5,813 nt of DNA from a virus. The stretch's first letter is position 1, and every line of letters begins with the position of its first letter. The DNA lies in the IMG/VR virus record IMGVR_UViG_3300045988_025734. The stretch is one strand, 5' to 3'. Positions 1 through 5,813 of this stretch are shown in pieces. Below the pieces are notes generated by a model. It ran no database searches, was not told the DNA's origin, and saw nothing but the letters and a program-made list of their open reading frames with translations. Made by a program: the position numbers and the translations under genes.

Positions 1-89
1 ATTTTTTTTGTAACATAGCCTGCAACATATCTATAGGTCTCAGGCGTTGCTTGTGCTATCTGTATTTGACCCATGCCCCATAGATTGCA
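1..89. repeat. Terminal redundancy, copy 1 (identical to 5725..5813). This is the signature of a circular contig; unit genome 5,724 nt.
   Basis: Direct comparison: attttttttgtaacatagcctgcaacatatctataggtctcaggcgttgcttgtgctatctgtatttgacccatgccccatagattgca occurs at both ends. The Rep reading frame is continuous across the junction because 5724 is divisible by 3. Confidence 0.95.
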
Positions 90-557
90 CATCCATTCGC
101 TGGTGTAATATCCGTTGTGTTTTATTTTATAGATTTGCTTTAGGTCTGTTGGTTGCCATCCATACAAAATCATGTGATAGTGCGGTCTTGCCGTTTGTTC
201 TCCGTATTCTCCCGCACAGAAATAGCGTAATTGGCCCCTATAAGCCTTTCTGAGACGTTTTAAGAATTTTTGCATATCCGGATATAGTAATGTTTGTACG
301 CTTTCAGGCGCTTTCTCTCCCGGCTTCCAGACGTACTGCACTTTGCGCATAATTTCACCGGTTTTTACTATCATGCCCGGCACGTGGTCATCATCGTAAG
401 TTAGTGTAATGAACCATACTTGTTCTTTTGGCCATCCTCTGGCCTCTAGCTCTATGCGTGTCGTCCAGTCCTCCCGTTGTCGGATTCTGCATCCGATGCA
501 CTTTCCGCATGGTATCAACATTACTTTTGGATTATACATTAAATCTTCATATTTCAT
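1..557 (-). CDS. VP4: Replication initiation protein (Microviridae VP4 / phiX174 A-like HUH endonuclease), N-terminal part. It runs off the window edge and continues at 5724..5364.
   Basis: My own translation of the reverse complement gives MKYEDLMYNPKVMLIPCGKCIGCRIRQREDWTTRIELEARGWPKEQVWFITLTYDDDHVPG...LRYFCAGEYGEQTARPHYHMILYGW...YRYVAGYVTKK. It shows the CxxCxxCR element, motif 1 FITLTY, the HUH motif HYH, and the double-Tyr motif YVAGYVTKK. The ORF track misses it because it has no stop inside the window. The frame is open up to an ATG at 596 (MSLARFSELAGKQ-), but that ATG sits in the loop of a terminator-like hairpin. ATG 557 or ATG 539 are therefore more plausible starts. None has a strong SD. 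Confidence 0.9.
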   Translation of the reverse strand, partial: MKYEDLMYNPKVMLIPCGKCIGCRIRQREDWTTRIELEARGWPKEQVWFITLTYDDDHVPGMIVKTGEIMRKVQYVWKPGEKAPESVQTLLYPDMQKFLKRLRKAYRGQLRYFCAGEYGEQTARPHYHMILYGWQPTDLKQIYKIKHNGYYTSEWMCNLWGMGQIQIAQATPETYRYVAGYVTKK

Positions 558-572
558 TTGTTTTCCGGCTAA

Positions 573-609
573 CTCAGAAAAGCGGGCAAGTGACATCACA
601 TGCCCGCTT
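573..609 (-). terminator. Hairpin plus T-run between VP2 and Rep (candidate leaky intrinsic terminator/attenuator).
   Basis: Perfect inverted repeat agcgggca (581..588) / tgcccgct (601..608), extendable by a580:t609, with a 12-nt loop. On the coding strand it reads AGCGGGCA-N12-UGCCCGCU followed by UUUUCUGAGUU. It lies about 50 nt after the VP2 stop. Confidence 0.45.
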
Positions 610-658
610 ATTTCTCTATCTTCCGGGCTGTATATCCGTATTAACGGCTTGTAACAGC

Positions 659-1513
659 TCACTTTAAATAATCACCCGGCTTTCTTTCTTCTCCATAATC
701 TCCCGTTTTGTTTTGTGGCTTTGTGAATTCTTGCTTTCTTCCCTGCTTTGGCGCTGCCTTTTCAATTGCTTCTTCGGTTACCTTGTCGGTGCCTTTTCCA
801 ATTTCTGTCAGTGCTTTTGTCATTCCATAGGGTGTCAGGTGCGTTTGACTTAGCATTTGCTGCCAGCTTTGCGCAGCGTTGTACCAGTCTGATTTGCTCC
901 AGCTGCTGCTGCTGTATGCGTTTGGCACAAATCCTCCACTTCTGCTTACGCCTAGTGCACTGCTGCTTGCAAGTCCCATACTTGCGCCGCTTATCGTTGC
1001 CGCACTTCCTCCCGGTGTGCTTGCGCCGCCGTTTGCGAATGCCAGTATTGGATTGAGCCCGGCTTTTTTCATATCTTCTACGGCTCTTTGGTAGGCCGTG
1101 GAGCTCATTCTTTCCTGCCATTCTCTGTTTTTCATGGCTTCGGTGCTGTTGAAATTCATTGCCGCCGTGTTTTCGATGTGGTTATAGATACCCTGTGCGA
1201 TTGCGCCCAAGGTATTGTAGCCCATTTGCTTAAGCATGGAGCCGGTGTTAAATTGGCTTTGTCTCTGTGCTTCTCCTGCTTGGTATTGGTATGCTCCTTC
1301 CAGCCACTTTTGTACCTGTTCAATGTTCGTTCCTGATTGGCTTCCGCTTTCGGAATGTCCTCCGCCTTGGCTTACACTGCCGCCTTGGCTTTGGCTGTTT
1401 CCCGTCTGACCCCAACCGCCAAACATGCTTCCAATGTTTTTAGCCGCTCCCGCAATGCTTCCTATTGCGTTTGCTCCTGCGCCAACCATTGACATAATTG
1501 TTAATGGATCCAT
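659..1513 (-). CDS. VP2: Minor capsid / DNA pilot protein VP2 (284 aa).
   Basis: Gly/Ala-rich hydrophobic N-terminus (MVGAGANAIGSIAGAA), a Gly/Ser/Gln low-complexity linker, and the block REWQERMSSTAYQRAVEDMKKAGLNPILA. That block matches the conserved S(S/N)TAYQR...AGLNP signature I recall for gokushovirus VP2. It lies immediately downstream of VP1. ATG start at 1513. Confidence 0.85.
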   Translation of the reverse strand: MDPLTIMSMVGAGANAIGSIAGAAKNIGSMFGGWGQTGNSQSQGGSVSQGGGHSESGSQSGTNIEQVQKWLEGAYQYQAGEAQRQSQFNTGSMLKQMGYNTLGAIAQGIYNHIENTAAMNFNSTEAMKNREWQERMSSTAYQRAVEDMKKAGLNPILAFANGGASTPGGSAATISGASMGLASSSALGVSRSGGFVPNAYSSSSWSKSDWYNAAQSWQQMLSQTHLTPYGMTKALTEIGKGTDKVTEEAIEKAAPKQGRKQEFTKPQNKTGDYGEERKPGDYLK

Positions 1514-3231: not shown

Positions 3232-3628
3232 TCGTTTCCTCTTTCTGCACCTTTTCCGGTGCGTTTTCTTGAGCTTCCTTCAGCTCTTTCAGCTTCATGG
3301 CGTTTACCTGTGCCGTTGCCATCATCTGGTGATATTCGTGGATGTTCTGCGGCCATCCGGTAATATCCGTGATAGGTGTTTCTTCCTTGGATAGTGCACC
3401 TTGTGACAGGCTTCTCATGAATTCTGGGTCGAAAGATGCTTTTCGTACGATGCTTTTAATATCGCATTCATCAGCATAACTTTCAATCTCTGCCTGCACG
3501 TCGATGCTTTCAGTTTCCTGCAAGTACTCTTTGCCGTCTTTGTCCTTTGCCCAGACGTACTGTTTTCTTTCGTTTTTGCCCGATTCGGAAAAGAGGGGCT
3601 TTCGCCCCTCCTCATATCGTTTATTCAT
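3218..3628 (-). CDS. Putative internal scaffolding protein (VP3-like), 136 aa.
   Basis: A charged, helical protein with ADECDIKSIVRKASF, resembling the (E/D)xDIN.I..R motif I recall in gokushovirus VP3. It sits directly upstream of VP1 and overlaps it. SD GGGAGGG lies 9 nt before ATG 3628. Its start overlaps the orf79 stop (ATGAATAA). Confidence 0.55.
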   Translation of the reverse strand: MNKRYEEGRKPLFSESGKNERKQYVWAKDKDGKEYLQETESIDVQAEIESYADECDIKSIVRKASFDPEFMRSLSQGALSKEETPITDITGWPQNIHEYHQMMATAQVNAMKLKELKEAQENAPEKVQKEETSEQK

Positions 3629-3860
3629 GCGGTTTGCCCTCCCATACCTTTTCCGTGTCGTTCTGGAAGGTGCCCAGTTCGTCCTCGAAATTTGCCAGCT
3701 TAAAGCCGGTGTAATCCTGCGGACTCTGGCCGATGAAGGTTTTCTCGTCCTTTGCCATCACGTTGCACATGCGTGCAAAGGTTGCGTTGTTTTTGCTTTC
3801 GCCTACCCACGCATAGCATTTTGCCACGTTGTCCCAGATACCATAATAGGAATGAATCAT
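3621..3860 (-). CDS. Hypothetical protein orf79 (79 aa).
   Basis: ATG 3860 is preceded by AAAAAAAGGAGAAAAACA, a strong AAGGAG SD with 7-nt spacing. Its end overlaps the VP3-like start by 8 nt (coupled). No motif recognised. Confidence 0.7.
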   Translation of the reverse strand: MIHSYYGIWDNVAKCYAWVGESKNNATFARMCNVMAKDEKTFIGQSPQDYTGFKLANFEDELGTFQNDTEKVWEGKPHE

Positions 3861-3877
3861 TGTTTTTCTCCTTTTTT

Positions 3878-3979
3878 TTACAGCCGGATGCCACCGCGCA
3901 TGGGCTTCTGGCTCAGGTTAATACTTTTGGTTTTTCGTGCGGTCACGTTGAACATTCGCTTGTCTTTTCGCATGTTCAT
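3878..3979 (-). CDS. Small, highly basic peptide (33 aa); candidate DNA-binding/packaging protein (phiX174 J / gokushovirus ORF8-like).
   Basis: Manual translation gives MNMRKDKRMFNVTARKTKSINLSQKPMRGGIRL, with about 10 K/R in 33 residues. It fills the otherwise unexplained 117-nt gap between orf75 and orf79 in a genome with almost no other gaps. It is below the ORF-track length cutoff. The SD is weak (GTAAGAAA). Confidence 0.5.
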   Translation of the reverse strand: MNMRKDKRMFNVTARKTKSINLSQKPMRGGIRL

Positions 3980-3983
3980 TTTC

Positions 3984-4211
3984 TTACGATATGCCATTGT
4001 AAAATCCCCTTCTGATAAGTTCAAGTTCGATTGCATCTGCAAAGCTCTTTAAGTGCCAGATCTCGTCCAGCATCTTCTTTGCCGTTTCTATGTCGGCTAT
4101 CTTACGTAAGAGCTTATAGTTTGTGTCGATTTCCTTGTATTTCTTTTCAAGGATATTTCTCAGTTCTTCTTCGGTCTGGTCCCTTACGTTCCACGACTTG
4201 TTTAGGCTCAT
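3984..4211 (-). CDS. Hypothetical protein orf75 (75 aa), predicted all-helical and charged.
   Basis: ATG 4211 is preceded by AAGAAGGAGGACTAACCAAC, a very strong AAGGAGG SD. The protein is rich in K/E/L heptad-like sequence. No motif recognised. Confidence 0.7.
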   Translation of the reverse strand: MSLNKSWNVRDQTEEELRNILEKKYKEIDTNYKLLRKIADIETAKKMLDEIWHLKSFADAIELELIRRGFYNGIS

Positions 4212-4955: not shown

Positions 4956-4984
4956 ATTATAGCATTTCTCTTTACAATTGTCAA
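4956..4984 (-). promoter_or_regulatory. Main promoter: perfect -35, 17-nt spacer, extended -10.
   Basis: The coding strand reads TTGACA (4984..4979) attgtaaagagaaaTGc TATAAT (4961..4956). Both hexamers are consensus, the spacer is 17 nt, and a TGn extended -10 is present. It lies at the downstream end of the only long non-coding region, directly ahead of the gene array. Confidence 0.8.
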
Positions 4985-5045
4985 GTTTCAATTTGTACAA
5001 GGTTGCGCAGCAATTTTGTGCAAATTGGAACTTTCGCCGTTAGGC

Positions 5046-5210
5046 GTTTTCAACACTTTCCACATAGTTTTCAACTTTTCCACATTGTTAAACTTTAGCA
5101 CAACAGAGCGTTTCAACAATTCAACAAGGTATTCACAATTCTTTCAACACTGTTTTTGCTACTTTTTTCCGATGCTACGTTAAAAATACAGGTTTTCAAC
5201 TTTTTCACAG
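5046..5210. repeat. Iteron-like array: three 19-20-nt direct repeats plus TTCAAC half-sites.
   Basis: R1 5046..5065 is gttttcaacactttccacat, R2 5067..5085 is gttttcaacttttccacat, and R3 5192..5210 is gttttcaactttttcacag (17/19 identical to R2). Exact TTCAAC starts at 5049, 5070, 5112, 5120, 5143 and 5195, and a variant TTCACA at 5132. Six exact hexamers fall within 152 nt, against a chance expectation of about 0.04. Confidence 0.85.
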
Positions 5211-5214
5211 CCCC

Positions 5215-5250
5215 TACTACTACGACTACAACAAGTTATATAATAATATT
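5215..5250. repeat. (NAC)6 trinucleotide run (5215..5232) followed by an 18-nt pure A/T-rich block (5233..5250).
   Basis: tac tac tac gac tac aac, then aagttatataataatatt. It lies between the iteron array and the GC-rich tract. Confidence 0.7.
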
Positions 5251-5301
5251 ACGCGCGTGCATGTGCGCGCGTCTACGCGTGCGCGTGCGCGTGCGCGTGC
5301 G
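5251..5301. repeat. GC-rich alternating purine-pyrimidine tract containing about 4.5 tandem (G/A)CGCGT hexamers.
   Basis: acgcgcgtgcatgtgcgcgcgt (5251..5272) is 22 nt of strict R-Y alternation and imperfectly self-complementary. After a 2-nt break comes acgcgt gcgcgt gcgcgt gcgcgt gcg (5275..5301), 27 nt of strict R-Y alternation. Its GC content is far higher than the flanking AT-rich sequence. Confidence 0.9.
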
Positions 5302-5313
5302 AATAAACACCAA

Positions 5314-5347
5314 TAGCCTAGTACCTTACTTGATAGGTACTAGGCTA
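5314..5347 (-). terminator. Perfect 12-13-bp hairpin 17 nt downstream of the Rep stop; terminator and/or origin stem-loop.
   Basis: agcctagtacct (5315..5326) / aggtactaggct (5335..5346), plus t5314:a5347, with the 8-nt loop tacttgat. On the coding strand the stem is followed by UUGGUGUUUAUUC, an imperfect U-run. Confidence 0.6.
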
Positions 5348-5363
5348 GGTGACACCAAAAATC

Positions 5364-5813
5364 TTATAAGCCGCCCTTTTGGAGCTTTACAGACTTTTTG
5401 ATAACTCTTTCTTTCGTCTTTAAGTCCTTCTCATAGTCTGCATTTTCGTATTTGAGCCTGTTTTGCTCAATAACTGCTTTCTGTCGGTTCCTCTTGATTC
5501 TCCATAGCCTTTCAGGGTTTTCAGCTTCCATCATTTTTTCGTAGTATCGCGGAATCTGTGCTTTCTTTCCGTTGGTACATTGGATGTAGCCTTTTTGCCA
5601 TATTTCTTTTTTGTGCTCTTGATAATAGGCATCTCCAAGGCCCGGTTTCAGACTCATACATGCAAATGGCTTTTGCTGGCCCAGGTTATAGTATACATTT
5701 GCTTTCTGGCCGTCAATTTCGTACATTTTTTTTGTAACATAGCCTGCAACATATCTATAGGTCTCAGGCGTTGCTTGTGCTATCTGTATTTGACCCATGC
5801 CCCATAGATTGCA
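5364..5813 (-). CDS. VP4: Replication initiation protein VP4, C-terminal part. Same gene as 1..557; the full protein is about 305-318 aa in the circular genome.
   Basis: The frame is open from the window edge to the stop at 5366..5364. The track's Met at 5798 is internal (..NLWGMGQIQIAQATPETYRYVAGYVTKKMYEID..). Bases 5725..5813 duplicate 1..89. The basic C-terminal region (RIKRNRQKAVIEQNRLKYE) is typical of microvirus Reps. Confidence 0.9.
   Translation of the reverse strand, partial: CNLWGMGQIQIAQATPETYRYVAGYVTKKMYEIDGQKANVYYNLGQQKPFACMSLKPGLGDAYYQEHKKEIWQKGYIQCTNGKKAQIPRYYEKMMEAENPERLWRIKRNRQKAVIEQNRLKYENADYEKDLKTKERVIKKSVKLQKGGL
5725..5813. repeat. Terminal redundancy, copy 2 (identical to 1..89).
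   Basis: See copy 1. Confidence 0.95.

Follow-up and report, generated by a model that had tools for sequence, protein, structure and literature searches.

A predicted phiX174-type replication origin, presented in a hairpin and inverted relative to the genes, in a clade of gut gokushoviruses

Genome organization and gene content

The window analysed here, i.e. the whole stretch of 5,813 nucleotides of the IMG/VR record IMGVR_UViG_3300045988_025734, is a complete circular gokushovirus genome with a unit of 5,724 bp and a terminal redundancy of 89 bp (positions 1-89 being repeated at 5725-5813). This genome is 94% identical to that of Gokushovirus WZ-2015a (KT264792), recovered from faeces, and its size fits the range of the circular genomes of Gokushovirinae (about 4.4-6 kb). 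The gene set is that of the subfamily, with the VP1 capsid protein (PF02305, E = 1e-137), the scaffold protein (Chlamy_scaf, PF09675) and Phage_ORF5 (PF20577), and PHROG families were matched by the pilot, scaffold and Rep proteins. Recognisable genes are found on the minus strand only (Table 1), and the strand that carries the element described below is devoid of any conserved gene. A 182-aa ATG ORF on the plus strand (3504-4052) was examined and rejected as spurious, as stop codons break it in the closest relatives and it matches no PHROG; long open frames are to be expected on this strand, where stop codons are rare, A representing only 18.5% of its bases. Genes on the complementary strand are essentially unknown in Microviridae (PMC3394797).

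The VP4/Rep protein (340 aa) is encoded across the circular junction, from position 662 down to 1 and then from 5724 down to 5364. A consensus sigma-70 promoter is present 25 nt 5' of the first ORF (4984..4956), and the perfection of this promoter ahead of the first ORF indicates that the whole genome forms one operon, ending with Rep at the hairpin. The promoter overlaps in its -35 region with a 24-nt imperfect inverted repeat (4983-5033, 83% complementary, with a spacer of 3 nt), a possible operator or a possible priming hairpin of the single strand. A tRNA search of the window returned nothing relevant.

Table 1. Features of the gokushovirus genome in the window and around the hairpin
Feature	Position	Strand	Characteristics
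Minus-strand genes		-	63-aa ORF, M15 peptidase, small ORFs including a basic J-like peptide, VP5, VP3 scaffold, VP1 capsid, VP2 pilot, VP4/Rep
Sigma-70 promoter	4956..4984	-	TTGACA-17-(TG)TATAAT, extended -10; 12/12 consensus matches
Repeat array	5046..5210	+	(C/T)TTTCAACA / TTTTCCACA, one orientation; candidate iterons for Rep or a host factor
(CG/TG)n tract	5250..5300		GC-rich, alternating purine/pyrimidine; adjoins the hairpin; Z-DNA-prone
T-rich tail	5300..5313	-	TTGGTGTTTATTCG; 3' of the hairpin on the coding strand; terminator-like
Stem extension	5308..5311	+	CACC, pairs with GGTG (5348-5351); four extra pairs across a 2-nt bulge
Putative origin hairpin	5314..5347	+	13-bp perfect stem, 8-nt loop; covariance-model match E = 1e-9
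Predicted nick-site core	5328..5335	+	ACTTGATA; single occurrence; 8/10 nt of the phiX174 recognition sequence
Conserved 3' flank	5348..5356	+	GGTGACACC; TGACA block starts 17-18 nt past the predicted nick; counterpart of the phiX174 'key' (binding) part
VP4/Rep, 3' part	5364..5724	-	Stop codon 5364-5366; PF23343 E = 9e-17; PHROG 942 E = 4e-109
VP4/Rep, 5' part	1..662	-	HUH (PHYHMIL) and two-tyrosine (YVAGYVTKK) motifs

Structure of the hairpin and of its surroundings

A first reading of the window made from the sequence alone (hereafter the sequence-only reading) had described a perfect hairpin with CTTGATA in its plus-strand loop, and this structure was recovered at exactly the same positions. 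It is composed of two fully complementary 13-nt arms, TAGCCTAGTACCT (5314-5326) and AGGTACTAGGCTA (5335-5347), surrounding an 8-nt loop that reads TACTTGAT on the plus strand (5327-5334). This is the sole perfect inverted repeat of at least 10 nt with a short spacer in the window, and its fold as single-stranded DNA (-15.1 kcal/mol, z = -6.2) was equalled by none of 200 shuffles. In some relatives (L033, L036), the extended stem is unbroken and reaches up to 17 bp. The hairpin has no match in Rfam, from which only two sub-threshold matches of miRNA models were obtained, both on the neighbouring repeats.

The heptamer CTTGATA occurs twice in the window (5329 and 5618), both times on the plus strand and never on the minus strand. 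This count alone is not significant (0.55 expected, with at least two copies in 15 of 200 shuffles), and the significance of the hairpin therefore comes from the comparison with relatives rather than from the number of motifs in the window. The second copy (5618-5624), pointed out by the sequence-only reading as lying inside the Rep gene, where phiX174 keeps its origin, is not an origin and turned out to be coincidental: it lies in no hairpin, is not matched by the model described below and is the complement of the Rep codons Tyr-Gln-Glu, being found at that place in 21 of 74 relatives.

The hairpin is flanked by two other elements. TTTYMACA has seven matches in the window, six of them inside 5046-5210, a total of seven being reached in none of 200 shuffles. 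Among 73 genomes of the clade to which the window belongs, the repeats amount to about 7.5 copies per 365 nt beside the hairpin versus 0.15 per 365 nt elsewhere, i.e. an approximately 50-fold enrichment. Their identification as DnaA boxes, to which they have a partial resemblance, was considered and rejected, the two exact matches to TTWTNCACA being not significant and the consensus of the repeats being TTTCAACA. The (CG/TG)n tract belongs to the conserved layout of the origin region; it is at least 16 nt long in 67 of the 73 clade genomes, with a fold energy no better than that of shuffles, and in some relatives (L005, L009, L012 and L015) a perfect GC-rich hairpin takes its place.

Conservation and covariation among gokushoviruses

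More than 50 GenBank gokushoviruses share the non-coding region 5047-5356 at 75-82% identity, their genes being more divergent. The hairpin is located just 3' of the VP4 stop codon in 17 of the 18 GenBank relatives examined, and in all these 17 the loop yTACTTGATA is identical and the 3' flank TGACACC is also invariant. Their stems differ from each other yet remain complementary; that of L016 is entirely different.

About 330 IMG/VR gokushovirus contigs were then collected, each oriented with VP1 on the plus strand, and a covariance model (R1) was built from 94 modules, a module comprising the stem, the loop and the downstream block. With a threshold of E <= 1e-3, this model matched exactly once per genome in 91 of the 100 genomes searched, and never on both strands. 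In the model-guided alignment, 88.5% of the stem cells are paired versus 62% in shuffles, and the covariation score reaches 0.60 versus 0.16 in shuffles, a value attained by none of 500 of them, the slid controls remaining at or below 0.12. Compensatory changes were observed in all 10 modelled pairs. Within CTTGAT, C, T, G and T are the same in all 91 genomes, and TGACA is present in 89 to 91 of them. Altogether, about 240 gokushoviruses each carry a single copy of the same module, with its covarying stem, its CTTGAT loop and TGACA placed 17-18 nt past the predicted nick. The comparison of relatives that the sequence-only reading had advocated, expecting a conserved loop and a covarying stem, thus gave a positive outcome over these genomes; and an exhaustive search with the covariance model revealed no copy on the coding strand, where a second module was absent at E <= 1.

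No integrated copy of the module was found when bacterial genomes were searched. Some IMG/VR contigs longer than one genome unit (L168, L169/L197 and L195) contain the module twice, in identical copies separated by about 4.4-4.5 kb, which is consistent with assembled concatemers or terminal redundancy rather than with two origins.

Relationship with the phiX174 origin and initiator

The A protein of phiX174 cuts the viral strand between G4305 and A4306 in a 30-nt origin, using Tyr343, Tyr347 and a HUH motif (bioRxiv 10.64898/2026.07.25.740675). When anchored on ACTTGATA, this origin and the module of the window align without gaps with 18 identities over 35 positions, CTA and CACC included. Both consist of a core, ACTTG/ATA, and of a second block beginning with GAC about 18 nt 3' of the nick; the GAC that is invariant in the module is located at +18/+19 from the predicted nick, at the same distance as the GAC of the phiX174 'key' region. 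The recognition core and the key block at a fixed distance, two hallmarks of a phiX174-type origin, are thus present in the window. Location on the gene-sense strand, the third one, is found in Chp2, SpV4 and phiMH2K and not in the window. Further differences concern the context, the phiX174 origin lying outside any hairpin, inside gene A and on the coding, packaged strand, whereas the one proposed for the window occupies the loop of a 13-bp stem located in non-coding DNA immediately 3' of the Rep gene, on the non-coding strand.

The initiators are also related. The Rep of the window has both the metal-binding motif (PHYHMIL, residues 160-166) and the YxxxY tyrosines (Tyr218 and Tyr222 of YVAGYVTKK, residues 218-226) that define HUH initiators, together with its PF23343 match. 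The phiX174 A protein is a homologue that likewise belongs to the HUH proteins and has two catalytic tyrosines (YVAxYVxKK); its counterparts of these motifs are LHFHAVHF and YVAKYVNKK. Over longer segments, EYGEQTARPHYHMILYG and RYVAGYVTKK in the window correspond to EYGTANGRLHFHAVHF and FYVAKYVNKK in phiX174, and the same EYG..HUH and YVAxYVxKK motifs are carried by ORF4 of Chp2. As a homologous enzyme is associated with a homologous two-part site occurring once per genome, the simplest reading is that this site is an origin, and on these sequence grounds the hairpin module is very probably the rolling-circle origin of Rep. From the phiX174 site CAACTTG/ATA, the nick is predicted between G5332 and A5333, the loop being the presumed substrate of cleavage by VP4/Rep.

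Other rolling-circle systems share part of this organization. Rolling-circle plasmids of the pC194/pUB110 family have a CTTGATA nick consensus related to that of phiX174, and are nicked on the displaced strand. Their double-strand origins resemble that of the window by this consensus; they differ by another family of Rep and by the lack of DNA packaging, and presentation in a hairpin is not known to be required. In circoviruses, geminiviruses and other circular Rep-encoding ssDNA viruses, a stem-loop carries the nick site at its apex and short direct repeats lie close by; genome types differ in how the origin is oriented with respect to the genes, some being ambisense or antisense. The apical position of the nick site in circoviruses and geminiviruses is like that proposed for the window, an architecture that is not evidence of membership: these viruses have an unrelated nonanucleotide, a single-tyrosine Rep fused to a helicase and eukaryotic hosts.

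Orientation of the module relative to the genes

Among a set of 303 genomes, the module was called in the sense orientation in 167 and in the antisense orientation in 77. It is on the coding strand in Chp2 (in the VP3-ORF8 spacer), SpV4, phiMH2K and nearly all environmental genomes. The intergenic hairpin of classical gokushoviruses (Chp2 2901-2950, SpV4 around 505-550, phiMH2K 3293-3347) is the same module. As in the window, its stem covaries, its loop reads (C)TACTTG(A/T)T and a TGA(C/T)A block follows downstream; it differs from that of the window by its location on the coding strand and at other places in the gene order.

Conversely, among the 80 genomes of the gut clade surrounding the window (VP1 53-96% identical), the module is opposite to VP1 in 73 and never on the coding strand; the covariance model adds three of the remaining seven, all antisense. 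The module is likewise antisense in 17 of the 17 GenBank relatives where it was found. Four unrelated IMG/VR genomes of environmental origin (L161, L206, L208 and L337) also have it antisense to VP1 and Rep, each of them being nested among sense-type relatives. The gut clade and these four scattered lineages imply that the orientation has flipped at least five times. As the loop and the 3' TGACA are inverted together, the module is truly inverted relative to the genes, and the orientation does not reflect the ambiguity of a palindrome. The proposal that the loop exposes a HUH-type nick motif antisense to all genes is thereby supported by a module conserved across the family and by a genome in which every gene is on the minus strand.

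Base composition and substitution asymmetries

At 4-fold degenerate sites, the coding strand of the window (T 0.11, A 0.41) has a composition that is the mirror image of those of phiX174 (T 0.57, A 0.09), Chp2 (T 0.49, A 0.25) and SpV4 (T 0.65, A 0.28). An A-rich coding strand is also found in phiMH2K and in about a quarter of the genomes with a sense module, and composition was consequently set aside as a decisive proxy of the packaged strand. In non-coding DNA, the T-A skew separates the two classes weakly (-0.22 in the antisense class versus -0.08 in the sense class). The 4-fold composition of L161 is extreme (A 0.80, T 0.05).

Substitutions were polarised by parsimony in triplets of close relatives, a procedure with some bias at these divergences. 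For phiX174 and NC16 polarised against WA11, a triplet whose packaged strand is known, that packaged strand, the coding one, has an excess of changes to T, with C>T at 17/103 versus G>A at 2/69, G>T at 3/69 versus C>A at 1/103 and A>T at 2/48 versus T>A at 1/393. In the gut clade, where 13 triplets were analysed at 4-fold sites and in coding-strand notation, the pattern is reversed: G>A exceeds C>T (0.250 versus 0.101, p = 4e-21, all 13 triplets agreeing in direction), C>A exceeds G>T (0.085 versus 0.033, p = 1e-7) and T>A exceeds A>T (0.091 versus 0.022, p = 1e-12). Changes to T are therefore in excess on the antisense strand, mirroring phiX174. The remaining complementary pairs (A>G and T>C, A>C and T>G, C>G and G>C) have ratios near 1, and the non-coding DNA of the clade shows the same direction (G>A 0.124 versus C>T 0.074, p = 2e-4). 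Selection for A-ending codons was considered as the cause of the asymmetry and rejected, since it should distort the pairs A>G/T>C and A>C/T>G, each of which is balanced, and since the non-coding DNA agrees.

The controls are less uniform. The 15 sense-module triplets have a phiX-like direction on the coding strand that is weak and heterogeneous (1.2-2.0-fold, p = 0.001-0.05), with the expected sign for C>T versus G>A in 8 of the 15, and their non-coding sites give no clear direction. The cultured Chlamydia phages Chp2, Chp4 and CPAR39 (L019, L354 and L355) display no asymmetry, every complementary pair being near 1, so that the substitution signature is informative only where it is present. 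One IMG/VR contig (L103) is identical to Chp4. Moreover, the gut clade is one lineage and its asymmetry is in effect one evolutionary observation, L161, L206, L208 and L337 having no relatives close enough for this comparison. The asymmetry, strong in size for the gut clade, supports a real change of the single-stranded strand without being decisive.

Proposed mechanism and alternative interpretations

In the supercoiled double-stranded replicative form, the stem would extrude or melt, exposing TACTTGAT in a loop of the plus strand. The HUH protein VP4/Rep would bind there, helped by the downstream TGACACC block, and would cut between G5332 and A5333, becoming linked to the 5' end via one of its two tyrosines. 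The host polymerase would extend the 3' OH, displacing the nicked strand, which would then be recircularised as in the reaction of the phiX174 A protein. In phiX174, the origin alone decides what is packaged, the procapsid receiving the displaced parental strand (PMC13386984). If packaging is assumed to be phiX174-like, a module located opposite to the genes means that the gut clade packages its non-coding strand; the strand displaced and encapsidated would be the non-coding one, making these phages 'negative-sense' microviruses. We infer, with moderate confidence and from sequence comparisons, that the antisense strand is the one displaced and packaged in the gut clade. This is also the best supported of the three explanations offered by the sequence-only reading, given the inverted module and the mirrored mutational asymmetry. 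On balance, it seems probable that this clade, the dominant gokushovirus clade of human and animal guts, and at least four other lineages have virions containing the complement of their mRNAs, that the origin has flipped at least five times and that the orientation of one 50-nt module directly reveals the packaged strand. Counted against packaging of the antisense strand is that rolling-circle forks would run head-on against transcription in the arrangement of the window.

Virions holding the coding strand could be reconciled with a Rep origin in the module if Rep acted on the complementary loop, ATCAAGTA, or if the antisense nick served the replicative form only, the packaged strand being produced from another, undetected site. 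In favour of this, all characterised Microviridae have been described as positive-sense, the evidence from substitutions is indirect and its controls are heterogeneous, and composition is not decisive. We nevertheless regard coding-strand virions as rather unlikely: both blocks of an asymmetric module are inverted together, which means that the recognised strand is inverted as well, a second module on the coding strand is absent at E <= 1, and the excess of changes to T falls on the antisense strand in both coding and non-coding DNA. The hairpin could also be a strand-specific signal of single-stranded DNA instead of a nick site for Rep, acting as a complementary-strand origin (a priming site) or as a packaging signal. 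Intergenic hairpins are used for complementary-strand synthesis by phiX174 and other microviruses (PMC9865509), and the nick site of phiX174 itself is outside any hairpin. Such a role is improbable, as the invariant bases are those of the phiX174 cleavage core and of the GAC block, with the spacing of a viral-strand origin, and no such motif is known to be common to the priming hairpins of phages; moreover, the module would still be on the packaged strand, leaving the strand inversion in place.

A role in transcription has to be weighed along with these. On the minus strand, the hairpin starts 17 nt past the Rep stop codon and is followed by TTGGTGTTTATT; its 13-bp stem has 6 GC pairs and is succeeded on the coding strand by the interrupted tail TTGGTGTTTA, the whole being flagged as terminator-like. 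At least five T are found in the first nine nt after the hairpin in 52 of 73 clade genomes, on a coding strand with only 18.5% T. The hairpin and its T-rich tail are thus probably also a putative intrinsic terminator of the single operon in the gut clade. That the structure would be only a terminator or a 3'-end stabiliser of the Rep-terminal operon, its likeness to a nick motif being incidental, is highly improbable, because terminators need neither an invariant loop nor an invariant flank. In addition, the tail is not T-rich in 21 of the 73 clade genomes, nor in the other inverted lineages, and in more than 160 genomes, including Chp2 and phiMH2K, the module is sense-oriented, located elsewhere in the genome and lacks a T-run. 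Of the earlier suggestion that the hairpin may be only the Rep terminator, the exclusive role does not stand against the invariant loop and flank, and a second role is likely in view of the tail. Finally, a chance palindrome containing a chance heptamer, another of the earlier suggestions, would be compatible with a motif count that is not significant in the window alone, and is left with a negligible probability by the comparison with relatives: conservation and covariation across the family, one copy per genome and E-values down to 1e-9 exclude coincidence.

Conclusions

The origin predicted in the window is phiX-type, presented in a hairpin and inverted. We found no description of this module as the gokushovirus origin in the literature, an earlier mention of a phiX-like motif in older papers on Chp2, SpV4 or phiMH2K being possible, nor any report of antisense packaging in Microviridae. 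Conserved intergenic hairpins of other microvirus clades have been treated as possible complementary-strand origins (PMC9865509). If the proposed polarity holds, the clade of the window would resemble Anelloviridae, which are negative-sense ssDNA viruses, in having every gene antisense to the packaged strand; the analogy concerns polarity alone, Anelloviridae belonging to an unrelated realm and having unrelated replication proteins.

The stem, the CTTGAT loop and TGACA about 18 nt past the predicted nick provide a compact and searchable origin signature for gokushoviruses, which rank among the most abundant human gut phages. Its inversion in their main gut clade predicts that the virions contain the non-coding strand, in contradiction with the textbook polarity of the family. 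Were this true, Microviridae would not be uniformly positive-sense, the interpretation of strand-specific ssDNA viromics would be affected and the unusual A-rich codon usage of the clade would be explained as the mirror of the T-bias of ssDNA phages. It would also bear on the design of synthetic or rebooted gut microviruses, and would mean that the genome polarity of an ssDNA phage can flip by the inversion of a small cis element.
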